64,000 bases of DNA from an uncultured virus (IMG/VR IMGVR_UViG_3300020203_000420) (IMGVR_UViG_3300020203_000420); one strand, 5' to 3'; shown: positions 24,719 through 51,018, counted from the first letter of the stretch. The notes: generated by a model from the letters alone, not told the origin. Numbers and translations: made by a program.

Positions 24719-24724
24719 TATTTA

Positions 24725-31771: not shown

Positions 31772-34135
31772 ATGTCAAGTTCGTCTACTGTATTTTTTGA
31801 GCAGATTTATACTGGAATATCTACAGGTGGAGTAGGATTAATAGGTGTTTCTGGAAACTCCCCGTCATTAAGAGCTACCATCTTTGGGCAGAAATACGAT
31901 GTAGATTTCAAGGACTTAGCTGCCTACATATTACCCACTCAATCAGGCCAAACCCTTTCAAATGGACGTGAAACAGTTTACTCAAATCTTTATTTTGGAG
32001 GAATTGGGGTAGTTGGAGTAATTCAAACTCCTGACCTTAGAGCAGCCTACACTTTTGTTGAGCCAGTAAAGTCAGGCTCCTTAGATTTAAAAGTTTATAT
32101 TCAACCTATCCAAAAAGGTCAAAGAGATTTAGGAGCTTATTGGAGGTCAGCAGAATCAGGATCTTTAAATTTAAACGCCACCCTTACTGGAGTTACTCCT
32201 AGCGATTTAATGGCTTACATAAGGCCAGTAATATCCAGCTCTAGAGATCTTTTTACTGAGATAGAACCAGTCCCTGGAGTGGATTTGCAGGGCGCAATTG
32301 ATGGAATTTTTTCATTCGATCTTCCAGCAAGTATTATAGCAGCAGAACCTACGGATTTACCGGCTACAATTTCAGGCCAACCAAGATTAGATTTAACAGG
32401 AAGTTATTACGGTTATGAGATAAAAGACCTATTAGCTAGTCTAACGGGAGTAACCTTTAAAGATCTTAATGCTGAGATTTACCCCAGTGAGAGTGGTATC
32501 TCAGACCTTAATGCGCGAGTCGCAGGATTCTTAGGAATAAACGAACAGGCACTACTGTCTGCTAATATCCGATCACAGTCGGGCACCTCAACTACTATTG
32601 AAGCTACCCTAACGGGAGTATCTCTAAAGGACTTAAGTGCCACGGTATTTGGGTACACCTTTACAGGACTCCCCGCAACGGTTACAGGAGTTTTATTCGA
32701 CGGGGCGCTAGAAGCTACTATAACACCAACAGGTGGATTTACAGACCTTACAGCTTACATTAAACCAAGCATACACTCCATAGCTAACCTGCAAGCACAT
32801 GTAGACGGAACAGACTACTTAGACTTACTAGCAACTCTAAACAATTCTCCACAAAGCCTGCTAAATGCTACTCTAACTGCAACGGGGATTAATTCAGATT
32901 ACTTATTTGCCACAGTCACTCCCACCTATGAGTCTGCTCTTTCTGGAATATACAATTCGATATCTGGTAATCTATTATATGCATCTATTGACACTATACC
33001 ATCTCAAGAATTAAGAGCTACAGTCTATCCAAAAGCGTTTTATATAGATTCTAGTATCTTTATTAACACTTACCCTGTAAGCAATCTTAGAGCTATAATT
33101 AATGCCGACCCGTGTTTAAATAGCAGCGATTTATCAAACCTTATAGTTACCATCAGTGGTGCCACAATTGGAGACCTATCAGCATCTATAATTCCAATAG
33201 TAGGACAACTTGCTATAGCCGAAGATAAAATTAATATAATTCTAAAAGAAAAAATTATAGACCAGGATTGGGTTTTCTTTATTTTCGATCAGAGAGCTAT
33301 AGCAGAGGATAAAATAAGATTGGTATTTGCTAACTCTCCTTTTGGAGATCTAAGAGCTGAGATAGTAGGAGTACAAGCTAACTCAGATCTTACTGCAACT
33401 ATAACCAGTAATTACATACCGTCTATTAGCAAGACAGGAGTTCCTATAGGTCAATGGCAAAACCTCAAAACTGGAGAAACTAAACTACTTAGACTATTTT
33501 TTAGAGGAAATGCTATAAACTATTACTACTCAGCAGAAGCAAATACTTCTTTTTCAGATGGTAGGAATGAGTTTTTAGACATTATAGTAGAGTCTTATAA
33601 AAGACAAAATGCAGATTTTAATTCTCTATTAAATCTTAAGTTAGAGACAAAACAAGCTAGGGTAAGCTTAAATGGCTTTGCAAATCTAGATTCAGCTATT
33701 AAATACGCCATAGCCGCGTCTGTGTCGGAAATACGTGAAGAGCTTAGGGCAGAGATCTTTGGTGTAGGCAGTCCTAAAGATCTATTGGCTTCAGTTTCAG
33801 GCATGGATGATACTTACTTATCAGATTTAAAGGCTTCTTTAAATTCAGTAGCTAATGACCCCTCCCTAAGTGCAACTATAACTCCAACAGGCAGCTTACT
33901 GGATTTATACACTATAATCTCCCCGCAGCAAGTAGGAATGACTTCAACTCCATTTTACGATGCCTTAGGGAACAGGTACTTACCTACGTTAAATATAATA
34001 TCGGATGGAAATTACTCTGTAGTATTGACTCCTATTACCGCATCGGCTATCATCAACGTTACTAACCCCGATCTACAGACAACCATCTGTGGCGTAGGTG
34101 TTTACGACATGGATGCAACTATCTCTGGTATTTAA
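31772..34135 (+). CDS. Repeat-rich putative virion protein (D-L-x-A-x-I repeats)
   Basis: Dozens of 12-16 aa units such as DLAAYI, DLPASI, DLNAEI, DLRAEI, DLTATI. Confidence 0.6.
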   Translation: MSSSSTVFFEQIYTGISTGGVGLIGVSGNSPSLRATIFGQKYDVDFKDLAAYILPTQSGQTLSNGRETVYSNLYFGGIGVVGVIQTPDLRAAYTFVEPVKSGSLDLKVYIQPIQKGQRDLGAYWRSAESGSLNLNATLTGVTPSDLMAYIRPVISSSRDLFTEIEPVPGVDLQGAIDGIFSFDLPASIIAAEPTDLPATISGQPRLDLTGSYYGYEIKDLLASLTGVTFKDLNAEIYPSESGISDLNARVAGFLGINEQALLSANIRSQSGTSTTIEATLTGVSLKDLSATVFGYTFTGLPATVTGVLFDGALEATITPTGGFTDLTAYIKPSIHSIANLQAHVDGTDYLDLLATLNNSPQSLLNATLTATGINSDYLFATVTPTYESALSGIYNSISGNLLYASIDTIPSQELRATVYPKAFYIDSSIFINTYPVSNLRAIINADPCLNSSDLSNLIVTISGATIGDLSASIIPIVGQLAIAEDKINIILKEKIIDQDWVFFIFDQRAIAEDKIRLVFANSPFGDLRAEIVGVQANSDLTATITSNYIPSISKTGVPIGQWQNLKTGETKLLRLFFRGNAINYYYSAEANTSFSDGRNEFLDIIVESYKRQNADFNSLLNLKLETKQARVSLNGFANLDSAIKYAIAASVSEIREELRAEIFGVGSPKDLLASVSGMDDTYLSDLKASLNSVANDPSLSATITPTGSLLDLYTIISPQQVGMTSTPFYDALGNRYLPTLNIISDGNYSVVLTPITASAIINVTNPDLQTTICGVGVYDMDATISGI

Positions 34136-35304
34136 TGAAGTTTTCTTTAGATTCAAAAACATTTAACTCTTTGTTAAAGAGGTTAGTAACACTCACAAGC
34201 TCTGATAAAGAAGCTAAGTTAGTCTTTTTGCTGGAGAAGGGTCAGTTAGAGGTATACTACTCTAGTCGGATAGATAAGATAGATACCCACAGCTTTTTTC
34301 ATGAGAAAGTTCAAGTAGGGTCTTCAGATGGTTCTGGGATCGCAGGACTATCAGCTAGTAATTTACTAACAGTAAAGCTTCCAGAATATACTTTAGATAC
34401 TAAGTTTCCATACTGTAAGTCGATAAACTTTTCTTTTACTCAGTCTATATTAAACATTAATTATGGAATTTTTTGGAATAAAGACTCTAAAGAGAACATA
34501 ACTAAACTTAATTTTGCTCTTTTAAATAAAACTAGTTACGACATGGAGGACTTTAAAAAAGCTTTTGGGGCAGAAACTAAGCCCTTATTTAGTACCAACC
34601 CTTTAGTGATAGCTGAAGCAATTGGACTAGTTAATTTTATAAAATCTGACGCTACATCTAAAGATGCAAATGGCTGTTTATTAACTATAACTGATAAGTC
34701 TTTTATGCTAGTCAATACTGACAGCAATTCAGCAGTAAAGTATGAATTCTCTGCCGAGATTTTAATGACTAAAAAGTCAAACTATAATATTGTTTTAACG
34801 AACAGCGTGTTAAATGCAATTAAAGGATTTCTCCCTGAAGAGGGAAATGTCCAGGTAGGAAAATCTGGAGGAGGTCTATACGTAGAAACTGAATCTAGAA
34901 AGATGTTAGTCCCTATAATGCAAGCAACTTATATCATTGACGATCCTAGGGAGTTTTTTACTGTGGCTTCTCCCCAGATGGGAGTTATAGACTTGAAGCC
35001 TTTTATATCAGTAGCCCTAGCCCTGGTTACTAAGACGACTGATAGTTATAAAAAACTAAAAATTAACTTTAGTAAAGATAACTTAAGTCTAGTTTGTGGA
35101 CCTGATAAAACAGACAATTTACCTCATAGTGGTATAACCCTTGGAGAACTTCAAGTAAATGGAAGTTTACTAATAACATGTTGTCAAAGGCTTCTGAACT
35201 TAGACTTGCAGTCGAAAGTATATTATGATAGTGATTCCAATAGAATAACCCTTTCAAGTCCTGATGATAAGATGGTTTGCCTTGTTCAGGGGTTATCCGT
35301 ATGA
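34135..35304 (+). CDS. dnaN: DNA polymerase III beta subunit-like sliding clamp
   Basis: 389 aa, MKFSLD start, LVNTDS resembling the VATDG motif, ends in a hydrophobic strand; first gene of the replication module. Confidence 0.6.
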   Translation: MKFSLDSKTFNSLLKRLVTLTSSDKEAKLVFLLEKGQLEVYYSSRIDKIDTHSFFHEKVQVGSSDGSGIAGLSASNLLTVKLPEYTLDTKFPYCKSINFSFTQSILNINYGIFWNKDSKENITKLNFALLNKTSYDMEDFKKAFGAETKPLFSTNPLVIAEAIGLVNFIKSDATSKDANGCLLTITDKSFMLVNTDSNSAVKYEFSAEILMTKKSNYNIVLTNSVLNAIKGFLPEEGNVQVGKSGGGLYVETESRKMLVPIMQATYIIDDPREFFTVASPQMGVIDLKPFISVALALVTKTTDSYKKLKINFSKDNLSLVCGPDKTDNLPHSGITLGELQVNGSLLITCCQRLLNLDLQSKVYYDSDSNRITLSSPDDKMVCLVQGLSV

Positions 35305-35864
35305 TAGGTAGGACCTTAATCGATAAAATTAAGCAAAAGGTAACGGAGAAAGAAGCAAGAAAATTCCTAGAAGAGAAGGGATATGTGGTAACATCCCCTG
35401 AGCAGAATCAAAAGCATAAAACGTCATCTAAAGACTTAATAACCCTATATTATAAGTTATTAAATAAGTACCATAAAGATGAAAACTTAGTTCTTAAGTA
35501 TATACCCTCTACCTCCCAAGATAAAGAGGATTTAAACTCCCTAGATAGGTTTTACTTAAAGGGAGAAAAACTAGGACATTCCAGAGATTCCCTCATAGAG
35601 GGATTGCAAAACTCCACAGAGTCCCTGTTTCAACACGCAAAAGAACTTAATATAAACCCACCTCCTACCTTTAGTTTTCTATTAGAGAGGAAGTATTCTT
35701 GGATATTCTCCGCTATAAGCAAGATAGAGAATAAAAAGAAGAGTAGAGAGGTAGAAAAACTATTAGATATAGCGTATAATAACGATGACCCAGTTCTTTT
35801 AAAGTTAAGAGAAGAGCGGGAAAAGATGTTACTAGGAGACTCGAATGGTCAAAAAGAAAACTAA
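35301..35864 (+). CDS. Hypothetical protein
   Basis: ATGA overlap with clamp stop suggests start 35301 rather than 35277. Confidence 0.6.
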   Translation: MIGRTLIDKIKQKVTEKEARKFLEEKGYVVTSPEQNQKHKTSSKDLITLYYKLLNKYHKDENLVLKYIPSTSQDKEDLNSLDRFYLKGEKLGHSRDSLIEGLQNSTESLFQHAKELNINPPPTFSFLLERKYSWIFSAISKIENKKKSREVEKLLDIAYNNDDPVLLKLREEREKMLLGDSNGQKEN

Positions 35865-37038
35865 AGAAGAACCAATAAAATCAGAAAAGAAAGAGAAGAA
35901 GGAAGTCAAAGAGACTAGCCTCTTCAGCAAAGCCATGGCCATGATTGCAACAGATCATGGAGATAGGGCCATGAGAAGCCTAACTGAAATGAAGAAGGAG
36001 AAGATCCTAGGCTGGAGTAGTGGTTCCCTCTTAGTAGATTGGGTAATTAGTCCTAAGTCTGGGGGCATGAATCGTGGTCAGGTTATTGAATTCTGGGGTC
36101 CATATAGTAGTGGAAAGACTACTGTGGCTCTTGGGCTTTGCGCTAACGTCACTGCCAATGGGTTACATGTTTTATATGCAGACTTAGAGGGATCTTTATT
36201 GCCAGAAAGTATAATCAATGCAGGAGTAGATCCTGAGTATTTTCAAGTTACCCAAATTCCCGATGGCAGAGAGCTTACCAAAATTCTTGCCACCCTTATG
36301 AAGACGGGAGATGTAGGGCTATTGGTTATCGATTCTTTGCCGTTCTTTGAGCCCATTATCGAGCCAAAGAAGGGAGAAGACGAAGCAGACCCCACAAAAC
36401 CTAAAATAGCCTTCGCTGCCTCTTTTCAAACTACAGCATTAAAGTATTTGGGGGCAATTGCACGAGAGCATAATATCACAGTAGTGTTAATTAATCAGAT
36501 TAGAAAAAATCTTTCAGGATATGGTGGGGGAAATATACCCTATGGTGGCGCAGCCAAAGATCACTTAGTAAGCGTTCGTCTCAGGTTTAGTGGTAAAGCT
36601 ACTAACTCCACAGATAAAATTACTGACTCCGAAGGCAACCTCATTGGTCAGTATACGACAGTAATAGGAGATAAAAACAAAACCTCGGTCCCTATGCAGG
36701 AAGCTAGAGTACCGCTTATACTAGGCAGAGGGGTTGATCCTTACATGGAGGTAGCTCTCGTGTCTCAGCAAGTGGGTATAGTAGATGGAGGTGGAGGAAG
36801 ATTTAAGTGGTCAGACTCAGGGGAACCTATTGCCCACGGCATCTCAGCGTTTACTAAAAAACTTTACGAAGATAAAGAACTATACATGAGCTTAAGGGCT
36901 AGATGTATAGAAGGATTAAACATCAACTACGACAAGTCCCTTAGGATAGTTAATTCTTTTCATAACGAAAAGGGTGAAATAAATGACTCTATTAAAGTTG
37001 ATCCATCTAAAATACAACTAGTCGAAGATGAAGAGTAA
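35845..37038 (+). CDS. recA: RecA/UvsX recombinase
   Basis: Walker A GPYSSGKTT, DLEG, VIDS, INQIR, YGG.A, KNK. Confidence 0.95.
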   Translation: MVKKKTKEEPIKSEKKEKKEVKETSLFSKAMAMIATDHGDRAMRSLTEMKKEKILGWSSGSLLVDWVISPKSGGMNRGQVIEFWGPYSSGKTTVALGLCANVTANGLHVLYADLEGSLLPESIINAGVDPEYFQVTQIPDGRELTKILATLMKTGDVGLLVIDSLPFFEPIIEPKKGEDEADPTKPKIAFAASFQTTALKYLGAIAREHNITVVLINQIRKNLSGYGGGNIPYGGAAKDHLVSVRLRFSGKATNSTDKITDSEGNLIGQYTTVIGDKNKTSVPMQEARVPLILGRGVDPYMEVALVSQQVGIVDGGGGRFKWSDSGEPIAHGISAFTKKLYEDKELYMSLRARCIEGLNINYDKSLRIVNSFHNEKGEINDSIKVDPSKIQLVEDEE

Positions 37039-37372
37039 AGCAGCAAAAAAAGTTCAATTTCTGTTAAAGGAGACCTTTCCTACGTATAAAGTCTACCCTG
37101 AGAAGAGTATAACGTATTCAAATACTATTCTATTTTTTGACTTTTACTTACCAGAATTAAAACTAGCTATCGAGGTTCAAGGACAACAGCATTACCAGTT
37201 TAATAAATTCTTTCATGATAATCCTATGGACTTTAAAATGCAGAAGTATCGAGACTCATTGAAGACTCAGTGGGCAGATGAAGCTGCCTTTAAGGTTTTA
37301 GCAATGGACGAAGCTCTGTGTAATTCTCTTGACCCTTTAACTTTTAAGAAATTAGTGTTAGACTTCATTTAA
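37028..37372 (+). CDS. DUF559/Vsr-like endonuclease
   Basis: FDFYLPELKLAIEVQGQQH...RD..K motif. Confidence 0.8.
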   Translation: MKSKAAKKVQFLLKETFPTYKVYPEKSITYSNTILFFDFYLPELKLAIEVQGQQHYQFNKFFHDNPMDFKMQKYRDSLKTQWADEAAFKVLAMDEALCNSLDPLTFKKLVLDFI

Positions 37373-37376
37373 ACTT

Positions 37377-37844
37377 ATGGATCAAGAAATTAAAGACACC
37401 ATTATCAGAACGTTAAACGAGACAAAGATTGATCTCATTGAACCTGATAAGACTGAGATTGAGATTGTGCTACAACTTAAAAGCAGTCACCTTGCATCTT
37501 CCTCAGAAGAAGACCTAACTAGGTATATTTATACTCTTAGCCAGTACATTGTTTTTCTACAAGTTCAATCTAATGCTAGAAATATTAGGTTTATTGAGGC
37601 GAAGAGATCCTACGAATTAGCACTTAGTAAGGAGTGCTCTAAAATTCCAGATAAGAAGACGGTTAAAGAGAGAGAACAAACGGCTTTACTAGGAAATGAA
37701 TCCCTCCAAGAGTTAGAAAAAAACTTAAGAGTTAAAGAAGCTGACTATAGAATTTTTGAGAAGGTTCCAGATCATATATCAGAAATTATAAATGCCTTAA
37801 AGAAGGAACTACAGAATAGACAACCCGCTAGAGCTTATAAGTAA
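37377..37844 (+). CDS. Helical protein, possible UvsY-like recombination mediator
   Basis: 155-aa coiled-coil with KTVKERE..A segment, between RecA and helicase. Confidence 0.4.
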   Translation: MDQEIKDTIIRTLNETKIDLIEPDKTEIEIVLQLKSSHLASSSEEDLTRYIYTLSQYIVFLQVQSNARNIRFIEAKRSYELALSKECSKIPDKKTVKEREQTALLGNESLQELEKNLRVKEADYRIFEKVPDHISEIINALKKELQNRQPARAYK

Positions 37845-39365
37845 ATGTTACAGACTAAGAATAATTCAGAGACAAAAGCAGATTATGAGCTTTTTTTAAG
37901 CCCATACGAGCGGGGATTATTATCCCTACTGATAAAAAAACCAGACTTGTTTAGTAGCTTTAAGCAGACTGGGAATGTAGATTTCTTTTTATTCCCACCT
38001 CACAGGATTATATACAACGCTCTAAGTAATCTATATTCCAGTCCTAATATCCATTCGATAGACTTTCAAGTTTTAAGTTCGGAGTGTACGTCTCTTAATT
38101 TAAAGAATTCAGGAGTTGGTCAAGACTACTTAATGATCCTAACAGAGGGCGGATCAGATAAAGAAAACTATGACTATTACTTCTCCAGAGTTCAGAGTTC
38201 ATACTTAAAACATACTTTAGCAGAAAACCTAAGAGAGAATTACTCTAGACTGGTTTCAAACGCTGCTGACGAAGAAAATAATAAATCTGGAGGAGAGTTA
38301 GTCCAGGAAACTAATAACAGCTTAGCATCCCTATTATCCTTTCAGTCAGGAGGGGAAGAGGGTACCCTATTTGCAAGTTTTATAGATGCATACATTGAAG
38401 ATAGAAAAAATAACCCAGTAGAGGTTAGGGGACTTAGAACTGGTTTTGGTCAACTTGATAAAGCGATCAACGGTTTAATGCCAGGAACACTTACCATTTT
38501 TGGTGGAGTTGCTGGGGGTGGAAAAAGTACAGCCCTCTTAAACATAGCTGATTATTTAGCCCATGAGTCTAAAAATCCAATGCCAGTTCTTTATATAAGC
38601 ACTGAGATGAGTAAAGAAGAAGATCTATCTAGACTAATTGCTATAAGGTCCTTGTACCCAGAAAGAGGAATAGCCAACGGAACACTCTTAAATGATCCAA
38701 AGAGAGAAGCAGTTTTCCAGAAAGCATTTGACCAAATCAAGGGTGGTAAGCTAATTCACATCTATGCTCCACAATTTAATGCTGCAACAATTTGTAACTA
38801 TATCTACTATTATAAAATTAAATATAATATAGGAGCTGCCATTTTTGATTATATTAAACTTGAAACAGCTGGTAATTTAAGAGACGCAAGAGAAGATCAA
38901 ATTTTAGGGGATTTAACGGACTCTTTAAAGCAGACTGCTGGCAAGTTAGGAATACCAGTCATTGCTGGCTGCCAAATAAATACAAGGTCTAACAGGGTAG
39001 CTGACAGTGACAGAATTATTAGATACTGTAACAATCTAATAGAGATCTGGGAACAATCTACAGAGGAGATTGAAGATCACGGAGATGTACACAAGTATGG
39101 CACCCACTGGTTTAAGATTAGAAAAGCCAGATCTGGTCCAAAAGACTGGATACCCATTAGGTTTTGGAAACACTGCATCAAGATGGTGGAAGCAGAGCTT
39201 TACAGAGCACCCGATGAGGGAGACTTGCCTAGGGATATGCTAACAACCCCTGAAGAGTACGATGAGATTCAAGCTAAAGCTTTCTCCGTAGGAGTGGTGG
39301 CATCGGTATCGAACACCAGAGATCTTTACGATTTAGAACCTGAGGACCCAAATGGCCTTATCTAA
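37845..39365 (+). CDS. dnaB: Replicative DNA helicase
   Basis: GLRTGFGQLD, Walker A GVAGGGKS, STEM, FDYI, CQIN, KARSG. Confidence 0.93.
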   Translation: MLQTKNNSETKADYELFLSPYERGLLSLLIKKPDLFSSFKQTGNVDFFLFPPHRIIYNALSNLYSSPNIHSIDFQVLSSECTSLNLKNSGVGQDYLMILTEGGSDKENYDYYFSRVQSSYLKHTLAENLRENYSRLVSNAADEENNKSGGELVQETNNSLASLLSFQSGGEEGTLFASFIDAYIEDRKNNPVEVRGLRTGFGQLDKAINGLMPGTLTIFGGVAGGGKSTALLNIADYLAHESKNPMPVLYISTEMSKEEDLSRLIAIRSLYPERGIANGTLLNDPKREAVFQKAFDQIKGGKLIHIYAPQFNAATICNYIYYYKIKYNIGAAIFDYIKLETAGNLRDAREDQILGDLTDSLKQTAGKLGIPVIAGCQINTRSNRVADSDRIIRYCNNLIEIWEQSTEEIEDHGDVHKYGTHWFKIRKARSGPKDWIPIRFWKHCIKMVEAELYRAPDEGDLPRDMLTTPEEYDEIQAKAFSVGVVASVSNTRDLYDLEPEDPNGLI

Positions 39366-39543
39366 AACAGCATTTAACCAGGCACTATTCGCTAATTTAG
39401 TTAATAGACTAGGAGAGTCTGGAATACTCATGCCACCTGAGGTTATGGAAAGCTTTTTAGTTCTCTTGAGGACCAAACTAAGCCTAGCTTTAGAGGACAC
39501 TTTTTCTAACTTTAGCAAAGACTTTGAAAAAGATGAGAGTTAG
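39352..39543 (+). CDS. Small hypothetical protein
   Basis: 63-aa ORF filling the helicase-primase gap, overlapping both. Confidence 0.5.
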   Translation: MALSKTAFNQALFANLVNRLGESGILMPPEVMESFLVLLRTKLSLALEDTFSNFSKDFEKDES

Positions 39544-40642
39544 TCCAGAACAAATTCAAGAATTAAAGCAGATGGTCAATCCTGTAGACATACTTACTGG
39601 GTGCGGAGGCGTTGCTTTGTCCGATATATCCACGTTACATGATGAGATACGAAGTCCATGTCCACTCCACGGAGGAGACAATAAGACTGCATTCTCCTGG
39701 AAAAAATCCTCAGGGTCGTGGGTATGCTTCAGTCATGGCTGTGGGGATGGGTCTAGAGATGTATTTGGATTTGTATCCAAAAAGATGGGGATTTCCTTTT
39801 GGGAATCCGTAAAATATATAGCCCAGCTTTATAACTATAGTTTAGTAGATGTTGGAGATAATGAATCTAACAATAAAAAAGAAGTCTATCTTTACAGGAA
39901 TACAGTAAATGAAATTAATTCAGCGAAGAAGTATAAAGTAGAGAATTTAAAAGAGCTATCTTACCTTCCTGGTTATACTAAGTCTGGATTTGAAACTATT
40001 GTATCTTATTTAGAATCTAGAGATTATGATTATCCTTCCTTGAAGGAGTTTAAGTTATACCCCTCTATAGATACATTTAAAATGCTTAGACTGGGTATTC
40101 CAGTTTACGATGAAGAAGGTAAACTAGTAGGAATTAATGCTAGACTTATGGATACCATAATGGATTATCCAGAAACTGTATCAATAGAGAATAAAAACCT
40201 ACCTGTACCTAAATATAGAATGAGCAAGTTTAACAAAGGCTCTGCTTTATATAATTTAAATAATGCAAAAAAACATTCAATTAGGGAAGGGTTAATAGTA
40301 GTAGAAGGGCAGTTCGACGTAATGAGGTTACATACTTATGGAATTAAGAATTCTGTATGTACAATGGGAACCTCTCTAACCTCCCAACAAACTTCCCTAG
40401 TTTATAAGAATAGCTTTAAAATTTGTTTCTTAGTAGAGGAGGGCGCTGCCGCAGAGAAAGGAGTTATAGCCTCTCTAAAACAACTTAAACTAGGTATGCC
40501 AGTTTCAATAGCTAGACTATCTAAGGGGGATGCCGATAATAATCCAGAGTTTATAGTCAAAGACGTATTAAAGAACTCAATCAAACTATCTGATGGAGAT
40601 TTAAAGCGGATAATAAACGAGGAGAAGTCGTTACCTTGGTAG
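39533..40642 (+). CDS. dnaG: DnaG-type primase
   Basis: CHC2 zinc finger CPLH...CFSHGC, PKY, TOPRIM VVEGQFDV, MGT; likely start ATG 39533 (ORF track 39524). Confidence 0.9.
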   Translation: MRVSPEQIQELKQMVNPVDILTGCGGVALSDISTLHDEIRSPCPLHGGDNKTAFSWKKSSGSWVCFSHGCGDGSRDVFGFVSKKMGISFWESVKYIAQLYNYSLVDVGDNESNNKKEVYLYRNTVNEINSAKKYKVENLKELSYLPGYTKSGFETIVSYLESRDYDYPSLKEFKLYPSIDTFKMLRLGIPVYDEEGKLVGINARLMDTIMDYPETVSIENKNLPVPKYRMSKFNKGSALYNLNNAKKHSIREGLIVVEGQFDVMRLHTYGIKNSVCTMGTSLTSQQTSLVYKNSFKICFLVEEGAAAEKGVIASLKQLKLGMPVSIARLSKGDADNNPEFIVKDVLKNSIKLSDGDLKRIINEEKSLPW

Positions 40643-41754: not shown

Positions 41755-41793
41755 TTAGCCCTGTCTATGGGACATATGTACTTTATAGTATGT

Positions 41794-42312: not shown

Positions 42313-42321
42313 TGTTATCAA

Positions 42322-43617
42322 ATGCCCAGACCAAAAAAAATAAAACTACCCAAAGTCGAAGACCTAGTTAAGTACTCAGATGACGAGGTGCTTCCTCCAA
42401 CCCCACCCCCATCAGGGTCTATAGCTCCAAAAAAGTTTGAGTACAAGAGAATCTCAGCTACAATGCTAAAGACTTGGAATAAATGTAAAAGGCAATTTCA
42501 CAAGCAATATGTGGAGGGTATCAAATCATCGGCTAACACTTCCTTTACTTTAGGGACAGCAGTTCACTTTGCACTGGAACAAGCTAACTTGTCCTTACAG
42601 GGCAAGCCTAGACAGTTTAATCCGTTTGAGATAGAAGATTATGTAAAAACCTTTGTGGACATGGCTGCATCTCTTCACGTAATGGAGTTGGGACTTTTTG
42701 AGGTGGGACAAAGAATACTAAGAGACGAACTAGAAAACTGCAATAAAACTGAAAAGATTTTAGGAGTTGAGCAGGAGTTTAATATCTTAACACCAGAGGG
42801 CGTTAGAATTTACGGATTCATGGATTTAATTACAGAAGTAGATAGCACTACTATAAGAGTAGTAGACTATAAAACATCTAACATGCCTTTAACTTATGAG
42901 GATGCAAGAATTGACGAACAGTTAAGCATGTACGATTTAGCTGTTAGATTAATGTATCCTCAATATGAAAAAAGAATTTTAGAACTTAGATATCTAAAAA
43001 GCGGAGAACCAGTCAGATCTTATAGATCTGATATAGAATCTTCTAACTTCAGAAAGGTATTGCTCGGAGTTCACGAAGGTATAATTAAGTATCTTGCAGA
43101 ACTGAAGGACGATTCTCCTCTCCCTAATGGAGATTTGAACTCCTTCTGTAATTGGTGCAGTTATAAACAAAGTTGCCCTCAGTACGTCGAAGCGGTAAAC
43201 ACTCAATTGCCAGATGCGCCTTCAACCTTAGAGTTGACTGATGAAAACTTTATTGAAACCTATGAGCGGGTAAGTTTAATTCTAAAATCTGCTGAGATGT
43301 GGAAGGATTCCCTTAAGATCTTCGCCATTGCTAGGTTAGAGGCTGATCCAGAGACTCCAATATCTTCAGGTAAAAGAGAAGTTTCCATGTCTTCAGGAAG
43401 TAGAAGAGATTATGATCTGGATAAGTTTTTAAAGCTAGGACTTAGTAATGACGTTTTGATGGGTAAGATTACTGGAAAGCCTTTGGTTAAACCTGTAGGA
43501 ACGGCTATAGAGGAATATGCTAAGTCAGTAGGAGATCCTAAACTATCAAAGAAGGTAGATGAGTTAATTTCTATAAAATATAATAGTCCAACTCTGAGAG
43601 TGAGAAATACTAAATAA
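42322..43617 (+). CDS. PD-(D/E)XK exonuclease (RecB/AddB/Cas4-like) with predicted Fe-S cluster
   Basis: ISATML...C, GTAVH, E, GFMDL, VVDYKT, QLSMY, CNWCSYKQSC. Confidence 0.9.
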   Translation: MPRPKKIKLPKVEDLVKYSDDEVLPPTPPPSGSIAPKKFEYKRISATMLKTWNKCKRQFHKQYVEGIKSSANTSFTLGTAVHFALEQANLSLQGKPRQFNPFEIEDYVKTFVDMAASLHVMELGLFEVGQRILRDELENCNKTEKILGVEQEFNILTPEGVRIYGFMDLITEVDSTTIRVVDYKTSNMPLTYEDARIDEQLSMYDLAVRLMYPQYEKRILELRYLKSGEPVRSYRSDIESSNFRKVLLGVHEGIIKYLAELKDDSPLPNGDLNSFCNWCSYKQSCPQYVEAVNTQLPDAPSTLELTDENFIETYERVSLILKSAEMWKDSLKIFAIARLEADPETPISSGKREVSMSSGSRRDYDLDKFLKLGLSNDVLMGKITGKPLVKPVGTAIEEYAKSVGDPKLSKKVDELISIKYNSPTLRVRNTK

Positions 43618-43638
43618 AAAAGGCGGTTTTAATACCAG

Positions 43639-45198
43639 ATGAGTAATAAGAAAAAAAATAGAGATAATAAAAAGTACGTTCAAAAGGCAATACAAGTTAC
43701 AAACCCAGTACTACAGTCCGTATTAGCAGCTACAGGCTCCGGCCCAAAAGAGACCCTAAATATTGCAGTTTGGGGGGCTACTCCGTATGTAATTACGGGA
43801 TTTGGAATAGTAATGAAGGAACTTCTTAAGGGTTTATATAAAACTTTTCCTGGGGTTTACAATATCTTTCAAACAGCTATTAACTTTCATGGAGACTTCT
43901 TTGAGGAGAACGAAATTACTGGAGGACCTCAGAATGGAAGATTTCGTCAGTGGCCAGCCAAGGTTCTATTTCCAAATGGACAGATTAATCTTTACGGACA
44001 AACTAAGTTTTTAGAAATGTTAAAAACTCTTCAAGATGTAGATTTAGATGCCGTATTCCTATTTGAAGATCCTTTTTGTGTGGGGGGCGGAACTCCTGGT
44101 GCTCAACAAGAGGTGGCTTTTTTACAAGCAGTCAAGCAAGAACTAGCGAGACAAGGAAAAGGCATAGTCCCCGTAGTTGCATATTTTCCGATAGATGGAA
44201 TCCCAAAACCTCAATGGATCGATACCATATCCAAATTCGTAGAGATACCTATCACTTACCTACCTTTTGCACATCAATCTTGTGTAAAGGTAAATCCGCA
44301 AATCGGACAAAGATTAAGAGTTATTCCTCACGGAGTTAATACTAAAGACTTTTTTCCCATACCTCAAAACGAGTTAAGGGCATTCAAGCGGGCAATGTTT
44401 GGAGATGCATCTGTTGATAAGTTCATGCTTCTAAACGTAAATAGAAATCAAATTAGAAAACTAATTCCTGCTAACCTAATTGCATTTAAAGAGTTTAAGA
44501 AAATTGTTCCAGACTCTTTTATCTATCTAAATATGCAACCAGTTGATGTCGGTTGGAATTTAATAGAAGTTTGCAACTCCTTAGACCTTAAGATTGGGGT
44601 AGATGTATTTTTTCCACCAGACTTCAACGTTCAAAAAGGACTATCAGTATCAGACTTAAATAAAGTTTTTAATTGCGCTGATGTTCTTACTTCTACGGCA
44701 ACTGGTGGAGGCTGGGAACTATCAGTATCTCAGGCTTTCGCTACAAAGACTTCGGTTCTTATGCCGAACAATACAAGCCATACAGATCTATGTGGAGATC
44801 AATCCGACATACAAAAACAAAGAGGGTTGCTCTATAATTCAGGCTCTAAACTAGCACAGATAACTATATTTCCTGGTGACAATGAAGTTCCAAGACCTCT
44901 TCCAGATTTAGATGATATGGTAAGCAAGTTAGTATTTATGCACCAAAATCCAGCATTTTGTAGAAAGATAGAAGATAATGCTTTTAGTTGGGCTCACTCT
45001 GCTTTAAGTTGGGAAAAGAATATTGTTCCTCAGTTTCATAAGGCATTCTTGGATGCTAAAAGTATAAAGCAGTCTAGATTGAACCAAATACAACAGCAGC
45101 AAGCTCCAGTCGCTGCCCCAGTAGAGGCCCCGAAAACAGGAGCATTGCAGAAAGCTTTAGAGGCATTGAAAGAGAAAGCTCAACCAGATGCAAGTTAA
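43639..45198 (+). CDS. GT4-like glycosyltransferase with variant motif
   Basis: TGFG, YFPIDG, IPHGV, NRNQIRK, ADVL; E-x7-E region reads GGWELSVSQ. Confidence 0.85.
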   Translation: MSNKKKNRDNKKYVQKAIQVTNPVLQSVLAATGSGPKETLNIAVWGATPYVITGFGIVMKELLKGLYKTFPGVYNIFQTAINFHGDFFEENEITGGPQNGRFRQWPAKVLFPNGQINLYGQTKFLEMLKTLQDVDLDAVFLFEDPFCVGGGTPGAQQEVAFLQAVKQELARQGKGIVPVVAYFPIDGIPKPQWIDTISKFVEIPITYLPFAHQSCVKVNPQIGQRLRVIPHGVNTKDFFPIPQNELRAFKRAMFGDASVDKFMLLNVNRNQIRKLIPANLIAFKEFKKIVPDSFIYLNMQPVDVGWNLIEVCNSLDLKIGVDVFFPPDFNVQKGLSVSDLNKVFNCADVLTSTATGGGWELSVSQAFATKTSVLMPNNTSHTDLCGDQSDIQKQRGLLYNSGSKLAQITIFPGDNEVPRPLPDLDDMVSKLVFMHQNPAFCRKIEDNAFSWAHSALSWEKNIVPQFHKAFLDAKSIKQSRLNQIQQQQAPVAAPVEAPKTGALQKALEALKEKAQPDAS

Positions 45199-46084
45199 AC
45201 TAGTTGGTCCTCTATACGACCTATCTGAAAGGGGAGAGCTGACCAGGAGGTTGGCTTTCTTGTTTTTAAGAAACGGGTTTAACTTTAGTATTAAAGTGGT
45301 ACCAGAAATTCAAGCAAAAATAAATGCTGATTTGAATACAGATACCCTTTCGGCTTATATAAATGAATATATAGTTATAGAGGATGTGCTTTTGTTTACA
45401 AGTAGGATAACTAACTTAGATATATTTAATCACTTCTCTATGTTTAATAACCCCAAAGCTTGGTTTCAACTTTCAGATAATGAAAAACCTTTCGGTAAAT
45501 ACTTTGATTTAGTTTTATATGATGCAGTCAACACAGAAAAATCTGAGTTTGCAAACTCTCAACCTTTTAGTTTGTTTTCATTAGACTCTGACACACAGAG
45601 CAAGTCAGAATTACAATTAGACGGTATCCCAAAAAACTCAAAGATAGTTTATTCGATAGTTAATTTTAAGGACAAAGATAGACTTGAGAGTACTATTAAA
45701 ACCTTTTTATCGTACGACTCTACATCAAAGGAAAAATCAGTTTTTATATTAAAAACGCACTCTGACTATTACTCTAAAGAGGAAACTGAAGAACTTTGCA
45801 AAGTTATAGATAGATATAAAACAGAGTTCAATACTTTTGACTCTATTGTATACGTTTTACATAATAACTTACCTAGAAATGCTATTTTAGGATTACATAA
45901 AATGGGAGACATCCTCTTAGAGTTAAGGCCTTTTAAAACTTTTAACCTGATAGATGCCTGGACAGCTTCTACGGCAATATCAGCAGACTTAAATTCAGAA
46001 GCTAAGGTACTTTTAATAGCTAGACAGGCAGAGGATACTGCCGCACAAAATCTAAGGGAAGTTTTAAATGGACTTTCTAAATAA
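45188..46084 (+). CDS. Degenerate glycosyltransferase-like protein
   Basis: VYSIVNF...TIKTFL...VFILKT...LHKMGD resembles GT4 C-terminal domain; lacks E-x7-E. Confidence 0.5.
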   Translation: MQVKLVGPLYDLSERGELTRRLAFLFLRNGFNFSIKVVPEIQAKINADLNTDTLSAYINEYIVIEDVLLFTSRITNLDIFNHFSMFNNPKAWFQLSDNEKPFGKYFDLVLYDAVNTEKSEFANSQPFSLFSLDSDTQSKSELQLDGIPKNSKIVYSIVNFKDKDRLESTIKTFLSYDSTSKEKSVFILKTHSDYYSKEETEELCKVIDRYKTEFNTFDSIVYVLHNNLPRNAILGLHKMGDILLELRPFKTFNLIDAWTASTAISADLNSEAKVLLIARQAEDTAAQNLREVLNGLSK

Positions 46085-46916
46085 CCTAATTCACGGAAAG
46101 AAAGAGTGTAATCTAGTATTATCGGCTGGAGGCATGAGATGCCTTGCCCATATAGGAGCTATACAGGCACTAGAGGAAGAGGGATGGGTGATAAAAAGCA
46201 TTTGCGCTATATCGGGCGGATCTATAGTGGCTGCTTTGTATTCCCATGGGGTCTCTTCAAAAGACCTACAAAGCTTAGCAGAGAATACAGACTTCAACTT
46301 ATTTAAAAAATCCAACTTTCCTAGGTTTAATAGGGGGCTTTTAAGGTTTAATGGATTAGGCAAGTGGGTAATTGATATGTGTAAGATACACGGTAATCCC
46401 AGCAAATCTATTGAGCTTTTTATTGCTGCCTGCTCTTTAACCACAGGAAATAAGATAGTCTTTAATAACCCTACTGACGCTAAGTTAGCCTTAGCGGTTG
46501 AAGCTACCTGTTCCATCCCTCTTATATTTGAGCCCGTCCAGATAGAATCGGAGAGGTACGTGGACGGAGCCCTATGGAGTTCTGCCCCTGTACATTTCTA
46601 CATCGACAGTAAGTTACCTACTATAGTCATAAACGCCCAAAACTCTCACGTTCTACCCTTTACCTTTTTTGATCAACCCTTAAAGGTTCTATACAGGGTT
46701 TTTGAGGTGTTTCAGATTAACAGATTGAAAAGTCTCAAAAAAAGAATAGACAATAAGCCTGTTTACATATTTGAACCTACAGCAGAAAATGTATCAGCTT
46801 TAGCTTTTAAGGCTAGTAAGCTAGTAAAGAAGAAGATAATAGAAAGCTCTAAGTTAGAAATGATAGAGTTTTTAAACCATACGGACGTTCATGGCAAGCG
46901 ATTTTCGATCTTTTAG
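46068..46916 (+). CDS. Patatin-like phospholipase
   Basis: LVLSAGGMRCLAHIG, AISGG nucleophile elbow, ATCSIP.IF.P, YVDGA. Confidence 0.9.
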   Translation: MDFLNNLIHGKKECNLVLSAGGMRCLAHIGAIQALEEEGWVIKSICAISGGSIVAALYSHGVSSKDLQSLAENTDFNLFKKSNFPRFNRGLLRFNGLGKWVIDMCKIHGNPSKSIELFIAACSLTTGNKIVFNNPTDAKLALAVEATCSIPLIFEPVQIESERYVDGALWSSAPVHFYIDSKLPTIVINAQNSHVLPFTFFDQPLKVLYRVFEVFQINRLKSLKKRIDNKPVYIFEPTAENVSALAFKASKLVKKKIIESSKLEMIEFLNHTDVHGKRFSIF

Positions 46917-47115
46917 GTGTCCCTCTTGCTCTACCCTAACTAGCCTCAACCTAAGGACTATTTCTAAGCCTGAGTCTAACACTGTTATATGCAGTAATTG
47001 TAAAAAAGAATTTGTTGGAACTTTGCAATCTAGTTGCTGTTCTGTTACAATTTTATTTGTAGAGCTAAACTCTCAAGGCTGGACTAGAAAATCAATACAA
47101 ACTTTTAAAAAGTAG
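46891..47115 (+). CDS. Small zinc-ribbon protein
   Basis: CPSC and CSNC pairs. Confidence 0.6.
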   Translation: MASDFRSFRCPSCSTLTSLNLRTISKPESNTVICSNCKKEFVGTLQSSCCSVTILFVELNSQGWTRKSIQTFKK

Positions 47116-47116
47116 T

Positions 47117-47380
47117 ATGAATAGAAATATAGAAAGAGCAAAAAAGATTATTAAAACTATATCTACCCTCCTCCAAGAGTTTGAGGGGGCTAAGACCGTT
47201 CCTAATGTAGTTTTTATGACCTCAGAAGACTTTGAGATAGTTAAAGAGTTATTCCCGTACTTGATAGAGGATAATTATTTAACCTATGAGAAGAGAAAAA
47301 TGCAGGTTATATTCACGGCTCAAAAGGCTACCGTGGGGTTAGCATTTTCTTTTCATACTGATTATGTGGAACACTACTAG
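47117..47380 (+). CDS. Hypothetical protein
   Basis: 87-aa ORF within operon. Confidence 0.55.
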   Translation: MNRNIERAKKIIKTISTLLQEFEGAKTVPNVVFMTSEDFEIVKELFPYLIEDNYLTYEKRKMQVIFTAQKATVGLAFSFHTDYVEHY

Positions 47381-47388
47381 ACTAGACT

Positions 47389-48771
47389 ATGAGATCTCAC
47401 AACTTAAGAAATTCTATTCAAATAGCCATTGTTGGGGGCAATGGGTTCTTAGGCCGTGGAGTTATACACAGGCTAAGTTCCTATAAAAATCTTAGAATCT
47501 TCTCGTTAGATAAAAAAACGCATAACCTCTCCATCAATACTAAAGGTTACAAAGCTATCGTACAGCAGATAAACATGGATGTTGCTAATGAGACCGCTAT
47601 AAACTCATTTTTAATGACGCATCCAGTAGATGTTATCTTGTTCATGGCGGGGTACGAAAATCCTACGGACGGTTTAGGCTATACTTATAGAGAAGATACC
47701 AGAGCCCTACTTGCTTTAGAAAATACCTTAGTTGCCATTAACAATATGAACCTGGAGTCCGAGGAACAGAAGCCCTACTTTATGTATATATCTTCTTGGT
47801 CAGTCTACGGTCCAAGCAAGAAGCCAGCACTTGAATCAGCAAAAGAATACCCAGGTAATTATACTGGCATGTTGAGGATTACAGGAGAGGACTTAGTAAA
47901 GAGGATTTGTAATAAGTATGATGCCCCCTGTTGCATAGTGAGACCTACGGAAGTTTATGGAAAAAAACATCATATGGAGTTGGCTGAGGTAAAGTTTTGG
48001 CCAGGATACTTAAGTTACTACACTGATAAGGTCGTTAAAAGGGAAAAAGAGATTACAGTATTCTCTCCAGAGACCGAAGTAGATTTAGTAAATATAAATC
48101 ACTTTACTAAAGTAGTTGTGGACCTTTTAGAGAGGGGGGCAGTAGGGACTTACAACATAGCCTCTGGCTCAAAAACTAAAATTAAAGATTTAGTATCTAA
48201 GATAATAGACGGCTATGGTGGTGACTTTAAGCCTAGTTTAATTTACAAGGATAGCCCTAACATTGAAGATATGAATATCGATAGCAGTAAAACTCTATCC
48301 TTGATTCCTTATGATACTGTTAATTATAACTTAGATAACTTTATTAGGGACAATTTAAAAATAAGAAAGTATGAGATATCAAAACAAATGGCTATAGAGT
48401 CTGTAATGGCTGAACCAGTAATCCTAGACCCAAGCCCATTTGAAGCCCCTGCGAGTTACAGGCAAAGACAGGTAGTAAGAAAGATTAACTATGCGAATAT
48501 AAAGCAAATCGCTGGAGACGAGTTCTTTAAGCTAGGGGTGGGCAATGTAGTTAGAAGAGCTAAAGAACTGGAAACTTTGGAAATTACGTCAGAGGATATA
48601 AAGAATCTAGAGGGTAAGGACAAGATCCCTAAAGAACTACTATCGAGAGTAAAAGACTTAGGAATAACCATTACTCTAGTAGAATCAAAAAAGATTTCAA
48701 TGATAGACCCTAAGACAAAAGCTAAAGTAATAAAAGAGAAAAAACCAAAGAAGAGGAAAACTAAGAAGTAA
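47389..48771 (+). CDS. NAD-dependent epimerase/dehydratase-like (extended SDR) with C-terminal extension
   Basis: GGNGFLG, YISSWSVYG, RPTEVYG, YNIASG; Lys-rich tail. Confidence 0.85.
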   Translation: MRSHNLRNSIQIAIVGGNGFLGRGVIHRLSSYKNLRIFSLDKKTHNLSINTKGYKAIVQQINMDVANETAINSFLMTHPVDVILFMAGYENPTDGLGYTYREDTRALLALENTLVAINNMNLESEEQKPYFMYISSWSVYGPSKKPALESAKEYPGNYTGMLRITGEDLVKRICNKYDAPCCIVRPTEVYGKKHHMELAEVKFWPGYLSYYTDKVVKREKEITVFSPETEVDLVNINHFTKVVVDLLERGAVGTYNIASGSKTKIKDLVSKIIDGYGGDFKPSLIYKDSPNIEDMNIDSSKTLSLIPYDTVNYNLDNFIRDNLKIRKYEISKQMAIESVMAEPVILDPSPFEAPASYRQRQVVRKINYANIKQIAGDEFFKLGVGNVVRRAKELETLEITSEDIKNLEGKDKIPKELLSRVKDLGITITLVESKKISMIDPKTKAKVIKEKKPKKRKTKK

Positions 48772-51018
48772 ATGTTTAAGACCGCTAAATTAGTTAAGGA
48801 TGTGGTGAGTGCTCCCTTAAAGAATGGAGATATTCTACACTTGCCTTGTCCAGTCAGTTACTATTACATTACTACAAATGAAGATGCAGAGATTGCAGCC
48901 AAACATTTATTGCCGATAACTACAGACAAGAAAAAAAGAATAGCAGTCGATATTGAAACTACTGGCTTTGATCCATACATTAATAAGATTCAGTTATTGC
49001 AAATAGGAACAGAAGAAGATGTTCAATACATTTTTGATGGTAGAACTGTAGACCTTAAAATATTAAAAGAAACTCTGGAGGGTGATTGCTGGAAGATAGG
49101 ACATAACTTAAAATTTGATGCCAAATTTATTAAACACCAGTTAGGCGCAAACTTCCACAGACTCTTCGATACTCTCCTAGCCGAGCAAGTGATAAGAGGT
49201 GGTTCTTTTGATGGCGGGGAGAGGTATGGATTAGACGCAGTTTTACTTAGAAGATTGAATATGCAGATGAGAATTGAAGTCTCCAGCATAGTTGCATCTA
49301 ACGAAGATGCCCAATATGATAAGGTAAAGAAGTCTATGCAGATGTCTTTTATCCAAATGGACCCCGCCGAAAGATTTTCTGGGGCTCAGTTAATTTATGC
49401 TGCCTTGGACACTAGCTATCAAACGATATTCAAACTCTCAAGTTGGCAAGAGTCAGAGCTAAAGATATATGGGACTAACACCCTCTCTGATCCTGCAATA
49501 CAAAATATAAACAATAAAGAAGTAAAAGATAACTATCTAAGTATGTTTCCCTCTCAGTTAAGGTTATGGGAAACAGCCTTATTAGAGTTTAAATTTTTAG
49601 AAGTAGTCATTGATATGGAACTGGCAGGGTTTGGTTTCTCTAAAGAAACTCACGCAGATGTTCTAAAAAATATAATGGTAGATTACCTACAGTATAGAAA
49701 GCAGTTTCTAAAACTTCTTGCACCTAAAAGTAAGCAGAAGACTCTGTTCGGGGGCGCGGGGATTAATCCAGACTCTCCAGATCAAGTTCTAAAGTCTTTG
49801 AATGAGTTGGGTCTAGACTTAGAGGATACAAACTCTGATACACTAGATGAAAGACTTAGAAGTTTAGAAGAGGGCACAGAAAACTACTGCATCGTTGATA
49901 GTCTTTTAAGTTATAGAGTTATGTCTAAGCTGATTACGGCATTTGGTGACAAACTATCTGGACATACCCACCCAGTTACTGGAAGAATTCACTTTAGTGT
50001 AAAGCAGATTTTAGATACTGGAAGAATAAGTAATAAAGACCCTAACTTGCAACAAATCCCTAGCAAGATTAAATGGATGTTAACTGGGGAACTCGATCTA
50101 GATCAAGTAATTTCCAAAAGATTTGGAATTAGAGAATGCTTTCAGGCGGCACCAGGAAATAAATTAGTAATAGAGGATTATTCTCAACAGGAACTTAGGG
50201 TTGCGGCATCCATTTCTTTAGATAATAAAATGATTGAAGCTTTTAAGCAGGGAAAAGAGTTACACTCTTACTCTGCTACTCTAATGTATGACGAAGATTA
50301 TGAGTCCTTTCTCACAAGAGTAAAGGCAAAGGACCCAGATGCTATTGAAAAGAGAGGCTACGCTAAAGTAGTATCTTTCGGTGCTCTATACGGATCAGGT
50401 CCACCAAACTTAGCAAAGACCTTGCACATCACGTTCGATAAGGCTAAGGAGATTCTTAGTAAATTCTGGGCAAGTTATCCAGCCCTAGAGAAGGCCATGA
50501 AAAGGTATGGAACTTTAGCTAATAAGGTCGGATACAGTAATACAATTCTAGGCAGAAGAAGGTACTACACTGATTATATTCAAAAGATGAAGTGGGTAAA
50601 TCTAGCTAATGATCCTTATACCATTCAAAAGTATATAGATGACTTGGGTATGAAGTGGTTTACTAAGGAGTACGGTCCAGTAACTTATGATAACTTAGAC
50701 TTTGCCAAGAAAGGTATTATAAGGAAGTTCTCAGGAGATATATCTCGTCAGGCGGCGAATCACCACATTCAAGGAGCCGCAGCAGACGCTACTAAGTTAG
50801 CCTCTGTCTGGATAAGAAAAGACTTTATTGATACAAAATTAAATGCTAAGATAGTCTGTCTAGTACATGATGAAATTATCTCTGAGTGTAGGGAAGATGA
50901 GGTTCCAGAAGTGACCGCTATCATGAAGACTAGAATGAAAGAGGCATTACTCTACTTCTGCCCGAACGTACCGGCAGAGGTGGACGGACATTCGAGCTTC
51001 CATTGGAAGAAAGGATAG
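48772..51018 (+). CDS. polA: Family A DNA polymerase with 3'-5' exonuclease, no 5' nuclease
   Basis: DIETTG, GHNLKFD, YAALD; TGRIS, PNLQQIP, motif A DYSQQELR, motif B R..AKVVSFGALYG, motif C VHDE. Confidence 0.97.
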   Translation: MFKTAKLVKDVVSAPLKNGDILHLPCPVSYYYITTNEDAEIAAKHLLPITTDKKKRIAVDIETTGFDPYINKIQLLQIGTEEDVQYIFDGRTVDLKILKETLEGDCWKIGHNLKFDAKFIKHQLGANFHRLFDTLLAEQVIRGGSFDGGERYGLDAVLLRRLNMQMRIEVSSIVASNEDAQYDKVKKSMQMSFIQMDPAERFSGAQLIYAALDTSYQTIFKLSSWQESELKIYGTNTLSDPAIQNINNKEVKDNYLSMFPSQLRLWETALLEFKFLEVVIDMELAGFGFSKETHADVLKNIMVDYLQYRKQFLKLLAPKSKQKTLFGGAGINPDSPDQVLKSLNELGLDLEDTNSDTLDERLRSLEEGTENYCIVDSLLSYRVMSKLITAFGDKLSGHTHPVTGRIHFSVKQILDTGRISNKDPNLQQIPSKIKWMLTGELDLDQVISKRFGIRECFQAAPGNKLVIEDYSQQELRVAASISLDNKMIEAFKQGKELHSYSATLMYDEDYESFLTRVKAKDPDAIEKRGYAKVVSFGALYGSGPPNLAKTLHITFDKAKEILSKFWASYPALEKAMKRYGTLANKVGYSNTILGRRRYYTDYIQKMKWVNLANDPYTIQKYIDDLGMKWFTKEYGPVTYDNLDFAKKGIIRKFSGDISRQAANHHIQGAAADATKLASVWIRKDFIDTKLNAKIVCLVHDEIISECREDEVPEVTAIMKTRMKEALLYFCPNVPAEVDGHSSFHWKKG

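Follow-up and report, generated by a model that had tools for sequence, protein, structure and literature searches.

A thumb-tip peptide in a phage family A DNA polymerase as a predicted docking site for the phage's own DnaN-type sliding clamp

In a 64,000-base stretch of DNA from an uncultured virus (IMGVR_UViG_3300020203_000420; hereafter the window), a family A DNA polymerase (PolA; 748 amino acids (aa), 48772–51018, plus strand) carries the pentapeptide QKTLF at the tip of its thumb, and a divergent DnaN-type (beta) sliding clamp of 389 aa and three domains is encoded 13.5 kb away (34135–35304, plus strand). On the sequence comparisons and structural models described here, the peptide very likely binds a beta clamp; given that it does, we have good confidence that its working partner is the phage's own clamp. 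PolA probably rides this clamp through QKTLF and acts as a processive replicase. An initial annotation of the window had proposed such a hybrid replisome, and the fold, motif and polymerase searches support it, although the pairing itself was proposed already in 2011. The window comprises bases 1–64000 of a 72,016-base virus record (contig G000) estimated to be 44% complete. Three relatives have long records and a close PolA, namely G001 (153 kb), G002 (140 kb) and G003 (260 kb, 95% complete); as G002 and G003 are ~100% identical, they represent two lineages besides the window's phage.

QKTLF, a predicted beta-clamp-binding motif by conservation, alignment and model, is encoded by CAGAAGACTCTGTTC at 49735–49749 (plus strand) and occupies PolA residues 322–326. 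The tetrapeptide GGAG links it to INPDSPDQV, the counterpart in the alignments of FNLNSRDQL (Taq polymerase) and FNPSSRDH (T7 polymerase). Translation and alignment thus agree with the initial annotation, which had placed the peptide just before the PolA thumb motif, at the site of the T7 thioredoxin-binding insertion. In the AlphaFold model of PolA (predicted local distance difference test (pLDDT) 91.5), the peptide sits in a loop (residues 320–335) after thumb helix 291–319 and before helix 336–345. The insertion that carries it is 11–15 residues long and lies at the position of the T7 thioredoxin domain; the anchor-to-anchor length is 46–52 residues in motif-bearing enzymes, compared with 35–36 in Pol I. 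Like the clamp-motif consensus given in bioRxiv 2026.09.19.751633, the peptide has a glutamine, a second position that varies and a pair of hydrophobic residues.

To quantify conservation, we used a homologue search that found 469 PolA sequences; the best 120 were taken and 119 aligned, leaving out the window's own fragment. These comprised close (n = 39, 37–63% identity) and distant (n = 80, 26–33% identity) homologues, which we compared with a canonical Pol I set of 63 open reading frames (ORFs) of at least 800 aa from 80 genome loci. Under a strict rule (Q..[LMF][FLM] within 16 residues upstream of the conserved Asn), the motif is present in 39/39 close and 69/80 distant homologues and in 0/63 canonical Pol I ORFs. 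As the background rate of the pattern is 118/4805 windows (2.5%), the thumb motif lies far above chance, and the conservation on which the initial annotation depended holds throughout the close homologues. A relaxed rule that adds [DSTNG][LMIF]F retrieves 77/80 distant homologues and 4/63 canonical Pol I ORFs. Among 15 shorter genome ORFs, 7 carry the motif and the remainder are mostly Pol I fragments. After dereplication at 55% identity, the motif is found in 10/10 close homologues, 11/15 distant homologues and 0/20 Pol I sequences. Q322 and T324 are among nine invariant positions of residues 286–400, and the preceding residues 318–321 are conserved at 27–41%. By these counts the thumb motif fits the Q-x-x-L-F/L pentapeptide of the QL[S/D]LF class. 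Its third position is T in all 39 members of the phage clade and S or D in 59/80 distant homologues.

A conserved loop at a thumb tip might also be a structural or DNA-contacting hairpin, its hydrophobic pair packed on the tip helices and its likeness to a clamp motif incidental. The loop is indeed modelled fairly confidently (pLDDT ~83), with beta-bridges at residues 323 and 329, G327 and A329 are conserved (95% and 100%), and several relatives keep [D/T/S]LF without the Q at this site. We nevertheless consider this reading very unlikely. The Q is invariant four residues before the aromatic across 26–63% identity, the spacer to the Asn varies from 5 to ~12 residues among distant homologues, and the entire insertion has been lost in whole subclades. 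It is missing from 23 of 25 members of one subclade and, together with the motif, from the PolA of JC39 (TOSV group). These three features speak for a dispensable linear motif for docking rather than for an element of the fold.

The polymerase itself is a proofreading enzyme related to the Hot Spring 1/2 (Aquificae/apicoplast-like) group. It matches PF00476 (E 5e-71) and PF01612, and both the 3′–5′ exonuclease residues (D60, E62, D213) and the polymerase motifs (D469; R528/K532/Y540; H699-D700-E701) are intact and invariant in 37/37 aligned sequences. Pfam detects no 5′–3′ exonuclease domain in it, and PF02739 has no match in G000–G003. Lacking this N-terminal domain and lying outside the Pol I clade, it is not a canonical Pol I (PolA1); its short thumb-tip insertion, devoid of a thioredoxin-binding domain, also sets it apart from T7-like PolA (cluster 5), which it does not resemble in sequence either. 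Its model has the Klenow-like fold of family A; the nearest structures by Foldseek are the apicoplast polymerase and Aquifex Pol I, and the best NCBIfam model is PRK14975, with a score of 329 that is below the cut-off of 640. We built a FastTree phylogeny from 269 sequences and 375 columns, excluding motif columns, duplicates and fragments of <300 aligned residues. In this tree, PolA falls into a clade of 185 members (support 1.0) apart from Pol I. Within a sampling from which the published Hot Spring 2 reference set was absent, it groups with Acidobacteria/WWE3-like sequences as its own long branch. Among the matches listed, its nearest sequences are Acidobacteria, WWE3-like and Nanoarchaeia records. 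Like Hot Spring 1 and 2 (clusters 8 and 10), it combines 3′–5′ exonuclease and polymerase domains without a 5′–3′ exonuclease, whereas the phage clade forms a separate, longer (740–810 aa) branch at 26–33% identity. A further metagenome contig (L069, 86,702 bases), seen over 10 kb on each side of polA, carries an identical polA and reaches ~18 kb beyond the record's right end.

The motif extends beyond clamp-encoding phages and characterises a wide clade of exonuclease-only PolA enzymes, among them products of bacterial chromosomal genes. Most subclades of the 185-member clade carry it, the subclade of 25 described above being largely without. Variants (QGSLF, QFDLF, IDLF, QMSLL/QLSLL, QQTFF) occur in Pyrinomonadaceae, Saccharibacteria, WWE3, Nostocales and Clostridiales records, where exonuclease-only PolA genes with a thumb motif are chromosomal or contig-borne (loci L158, L163, L165, L162, L159–L161, L166); the chromosomal QGSLF, QFDLF, QMSLL and QLSLL are close to QL[S/D]LF. 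At L158, L163, L165 and L162 the neighbours are housekeeping genes, with transporters, aspS, gatA/gatB, clpB and rplS beside the Pyrinomonadaceae, Saccharibacteria and WWE3 enzymes. No clamp was found among the 34 of 61 neighbouring ORFs that were scanned, and each of the four chromosomal-PolA genomes searched has one dnaN match. The motif-bearing enzyme is the only PolA match in the assemblies of Saccharibacteria and WWE3, neither of which is complete. Unclassified phages of 55–134 kb (L009, L013, L018, L022, L004, L012) also carry QTSLF, QLSLF, QYDLF, QLDLF, ATLF or QLGLF at the thumb site. Searches of motif-bearing 92–134 kb phages gave a clamp in 0/5 with PF02768 and 0/4 with phrog_947; as the positive control, G003, was likewise missed with phrog_947, these counts are uninformative on clamp presence.

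The product of 34135–35304 adopts a clamp fold, as the initial annotation had anticipated. Its AlphaFold2 model (pLDDT 86, predicted template modelling score 0.83) aligns over its full length with bacterial DnaN in the PDB (best Foldseek E 5.3e-23, template modelling score 0.77) at 9–18% identity. Profile matches to phrog_947 (E 7e-9) and to the PDB profile 8dt6 (E 3e-6) agree with this assignment, as do hhalign (94.8%) and Atlas, and the length is that of a three-domain clamp protomer (about 370–390 aa). The family is divergent. Neither Pfam nor NCBIfam gives a clamp match for this ORF, tblastn against 50,697 phage records found none, single-sequence and clamp-alignment scans of viral contigs gave no relatives, and the searches made yielded nine relatives in all. 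The gene occupies the same place in the gene order in 3/3 of the long-record relatives, whose PolA motifs read QNTLF (G001) and QKTLL (G002 and G003); the G003 clamp lineage shares 23–25% identity with the window clamp. The computed isoelectric point of the clamp is 6.8 (4.9–8.6 across its family), and that of four bacterial DnaN proteins is 5.0–5.2. The stop of a large virion-like gene (31772–34135) and the start codon of the clamp gene overlap, a junction kept in G001–G003. Directly 3′ lies a gene for a 195-aa protein of no Pfam or PHROG match (35277–35864, plus strand), which is also present in G001–G003.

The canonical DnaN peptide pocket is lined by TD[G/S]xRL and a C-terminal MP. Compared with Photorhabdus DnaN, the phage clamp has TDSNSA in place of TDGHRL (172–177) and DATSKDANG in the 150–157 loop, and its C-terminal strand reads LVQGL instead of VVMPM, in an uncertain register. 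Only the T, the D and the S/G of the canonical pocket are retained. Within the clamp family, 8 of the 19 invariant residues fall in the segments aligned with the DnaN pocket. These comparisons suggest to us remodelling of the pocket followed by its fixation in the family; segments that are remodelled yet invariant support a conserved ligand.

These observations also bear on the possibility that the motif serves host DnaN above all, leaving the phage clamp for a different task (activation of late transcription in the manner of T4 gp45, recombination or DNA modification). The motif goes back to the ancestor of the clade, and for its chromosomal carriers host DnaN is the only clamp to use; the pocket of the phage clamp is heavily remodelled, the clamp gene overlaps a virion-like gene at a distance from polA, and a clamp role in late transcription has been described for T4 and Mu. 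Yet the change at motif position 3, from S or D in most distant homologues to an invariant T in the phage clade, is what would be expected had the motif and a private pocket changed together, and no part of the phage clamp is more invariant than the segments of its pocket. The same QxTL-hydrophobic pattern recurs in a delta-like protein of a relative (below), a resemblance noticed post hoc and at about chance level. We regard host DnaN as an unlikely main partner, and favour docking on the phage's own clamp.

The initial annotation, having found no clamp loader in the window, had suggested that it might be borrowed from the host or lie elsewhere. A search of the 72-kb contig's ORFs found none either; the phage nevertheless probably encodes its own. 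G003 carries a DnaX-like ATPase gene (350 aa; 204,689–205,741, minus strand; TIGR02397 E 1e-61, below cut-off; phrog_5846 E 2e-56), which is also found in G002. Its product has GFGTGKTS and DEAH, SRS instead of SRC, and no C4 zinc module, features on which we scored it as a DnaX AAA+ protein. Overlapping it is a gene for a 295-aa delta-like protein, the pair spanning 203,817–205,741 of G003 on the minus strand (L058:3817–5741; also in L045). The nearest Atlas clusters of the latter are Pol III delta (0.96), and 7 of the ten best family matches agree. Its QSTLIPSKKTL aligns with SLFASRQTL of HolA and echoes the QKTLL of the same phage's PolA, although QxTL-hydrophobic motifs number 2 in 66,431 residues of G003, which is about chance. 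From these sequence features, the pair is a candidate two-gene bacterial-type clamp loader. The left end of the window contig maps to ~140 kb of G003 and G001 ends at ~152 kb, >50 kb short; both contigs end before the loader region, which is the most likely reason why the window contig lacks a loader. The AAA+ gene at 55251–57065 was rejected as a loader. It is Clp-like (PF07724 E 4e-40, PF10431) and matches the DnaX profile with E 6e-8, compared with 7e-125 for the true DnaX, which is one of the profile's own seed sequences. The Pfam scan of G003 covered 75 of 239 ORFs of at least 100 aa, picked by size and lack of a window match, and missed ORFs spanning the borders of 20-kb stretches. G003 further encodes a class 1 peptide release factor, ribosomal protein S2, a volactin-like actin and two histidine kinases (L050:2822–3907, L051:7368–8297, L058:2200–3252, L051:12686–14982).

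We also considered whether PolA is a clamp-bound gap-filling or recombination polymerase, with replication carried out by an undetected C- or B-family enzyme or by host Pol III. The window contig is less than half complete, cellular relatives of PolA coexist with a canonical Pol I in two genomes (G009 and G012) and are not the replicases there, and a split minimal Pol III alpha of the kind described in jumbo phages (PMC7824862, in the part available) could be missed. Against this stand the absence of any PF07733 or PF00136 match in G000–G003, including the 95%-complete G003, in a first-look search that can miss divergent genes, the intact proofreading domain, the phage's own helicase, primase, clamp and putative loader, and the lack of a detected 5′–3′ exonuclease for a Pol I-like role. 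We judge a hidden replicase extremely unlikely; the initial annotation had named a phage DnaE elsewhere as one finding that would overturn it, and this search matched none in the record or its three relatives.

Several points weigh against docking of QKTLF on the phage clamp as the basis of processive replication. The first concerns the clamp: most residues that line the canonical pocket are replaced (N for H175, S for R176, A for both L177 and L155, and QG, or residues nearby, for MP), so that homology does not allow clamp binding to be taken for granted. The peptide is not a perfect match either: position 2 is mostly Lys (24/39) where the consensus is aliphatic, L or M replaces F in 12/39 close homologues, and the two beta-bridges of the loop and the invariant A329 fit a partly structural role. 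The pairing does not require the motif, since phage Ma-LMM01 has PolA, clamp and loader without it. With regard to the loader, the delta assignment has no support from Pfam, NCBIfam or the PDB search (pairwise hhalign 0.1%), and the loader has been seen in one lineage only (G002/G003). Lastly, the negative results for DnaE and PolB come from a fast first-look search that missed G003's own clamp with phrog_947, and are further limited by the incompleteness of the window contig.

On balance, we propose the following mechanism for the phage replisome. QKTLF, through Q322, L325 and F326, would dock in the peptide pocket of the DnaN-type clamp, which would dimerise into a ring. A loader of several DnaX-like subunits and one delta-like subunit would open the ring at primers made by DnaG, and DnaB would unwind DNA ahead of the polymerase. 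The ring would follow the polymerase along the exiting duplex, which passes the thumb, so that a peptide at the thumb tip is well placed to hold the ring. Primers would probably be removed by host enzymes, because no 5′–3′ exonuclease was detected. A proofreading PolA tethered in this way may be processive enough to serve as the replicase. More tentatively, and with less than even confidence, we suggest that family A polymerases in general use the thumb tip as a socket for processivity factors. A whole branch comprising phage replicases and orphan chromosomal 'Hot Spring 2' enzymes of Acidobacteria, the candidate phyla radiation and cyanobacteria might dock a beta clamp there, and the phage clade might have made this a private, host-orthogonal code, in which the polymerase and the delta subunit of a minimal two-gene loader would both carry a QxTL-hydrophobic peptide that a remodelled pocket reads.

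Replicases composed of PolA, PolIII-beta and PolIII-gamma were predicted in phages RSL1 and Ma-LMM01 by Kazlauskas and Venclovas in 2011 (PMC3201878). In the sections available, the clamp is proposed as the processivity factor of PolA, and the composition of the loader is left open, with only gamma found. RSL1 and Ma-LMM01 are thus large phages with a matching set of three components, for which the clamp was likewise proposed to serve PolA. Those sections name no docking motif for PolA; here, the motif is mapped and a delta-like gene is found in a relative. The PolA of RSL1 (ORF256, L239:30391–33543) has AKSLF, a variant lacking the Q, at the same thumb site. By contrast, the PolA of Ma-LMM01 has no thumb motif and is split, with the exonuclease and thumb in gp180 and the rest in gp178. 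In Ma-LMM01, gp178–180 lie at L157:32271–34636 and gp168–169 at 24618–26395, and a 228-aa gene of no assigned function follows the loader gene, as in G003. Homology between gp168 and the delta-like protein was not detected (E 0.76).

T7 gp5 attaches its processivity factor at the same thumb-tip position, just before FNxxS (PMC10201439, in the part available). It does so through a folded insertion of ~76 residues that binds host thioredoxin, whereas the window PolA has an insertion of 11–15 residues, a linear motif and a ring as predicted partner. T4 offers another self-contained phage set of polymerase, clamp and two-gene loader (gp43, gp45 and gp44-62). T4, however, uses a B-family polymerase with a C-terminal motif, a two-domain trimeric clamp and an RFC-like loader, and the window phage and its relative an A-family polymerase with an internal motif, a three-domain DnaN-type clamp and a DnaX/delta-type loader. 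The initial annotation's premise that beta clamps normally serve family C replicases needs widening, as their clients also include B- and Y-family enzymes and some members of the A family. According to the available part of bioRxiv 2026.09.19.751633, binding assays and structures demonstrate a clamp motif (QLSLL in Mycobacteriales) in M. tuberculosis Pol I, along with a second, mobile contact between thumb and clamp. A 2026 survey (PMC12926913, likewise available in part) reports QxxLF in an exonuclease loop of actinobacterial PolA2/APEX and calls it the first clamp motif in bacterial A-family enzymes. These are family A polymerases with a beta-clamp motif, as is the window PolA, but their motifs lie between the exonuclease and polymerase domains or in the exonuclease loop, and their proofreading domain is vestigial. 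The window enzyme has the motif at the thumb tip, keeps an intact proofreading domain and is encoded along with a phage clamp.

For Hot Spring 2 (cluster 10), the available text of Czernecki 2023 (PMC10201439) gives 'No known partners' and an unknown role; the hosts of the chromosomal motif carriers fit the description of this cluster there. TOSV-type viruses OS3173 and GBS41 encode a beta clamp without an obvious loader (PMC7689252, in the part available). Our literature search, with subscription literature and supplements largely outside it, turned up no description of a clamp motif at the thumb tip of PolA. The pairing of PolA with clamp and loader (as a proposal), the class of clamp motif and two PolA clamp motifs at other sites were already known. 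No description appears to exist of the thumb-tip site, the distribution of the motif over the clade, the remodelled pocket or the delta-like subunit.

Two questions arise from the 2011 study, as far as its available text goes: how large phages with PolA as their only polymerase gain replicase processivity, and what the lone DnaX-like subunit assembles with. For both, our analysis names candidates, namely residues Q322, L325 and F326, their partner and a putative delta subunit. It also suggests a partner for a widespread bacterial PolA group that is listed without one. If true, a clamp tether would let a normally short-range enzyme type copy a large genome. In engineering, such a thumb-tip tether, short and graftable and combined with an orthogonal clamp, could help to make Pol I-type enzymes processive, a use to which the T7 thioredoxin domain has been put.

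The region between the clamp gene and polA encodes further replication proteins; the genes for the helicase, the primase, the 99-aa protein, RecA, RuvC and the nuclease lie on the plus strand. A DnaB-like replicative helicase (37845–39365; PF03796 E 4e-26, PF00772, TIGR00665) and a DnaG-like primase with zinc ribbon and Toprim domains (39524–40642; Pfam and NCBIfam matches) are as the initial annotation had it. Its SSB-like gene (40636–40935) could not be upheld as a single-stranded DNA-binding protein (SSB): the 99-aa product, possibly an oligonucleotide/oligosaccharide-binding (OB) fold, has no match in four libraries, its sole homologue (in L001) has a weak RecJ_OB match (E 0.008), and no homologue was seen in G003 between dnaG and dnaJ. 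A RecA-like recombinase (35845–37038; PF00154 E 3e-34), a RuvC-like resolvase (41767–42267; PF02075 E 3e-10) and a PD-(D/E)XK nuclease (42322–43617; PF12705 E 6e-24) are also encoded here, as is a 155-aa helical protein of no assigned function (within 35845–37844); a Rad52/22-like protein follows at 54622–55242. Together, these five genes suggest recombination-dependent replication. Interleaved with the replication genes are those for DnaJ, a glycosyltransferase, a patatin, an NAD-dependent epimerase, Fe-S biogenesis and the Clp-type AAA+ protein (40936–41754, 43639–48771, 52532–52876, 55251–57065), most of them conserved in relatives. A 388-aa gene of no family (51396–52562) lies 3′ of polA in the window and in the close relatives whose loci reach that far.

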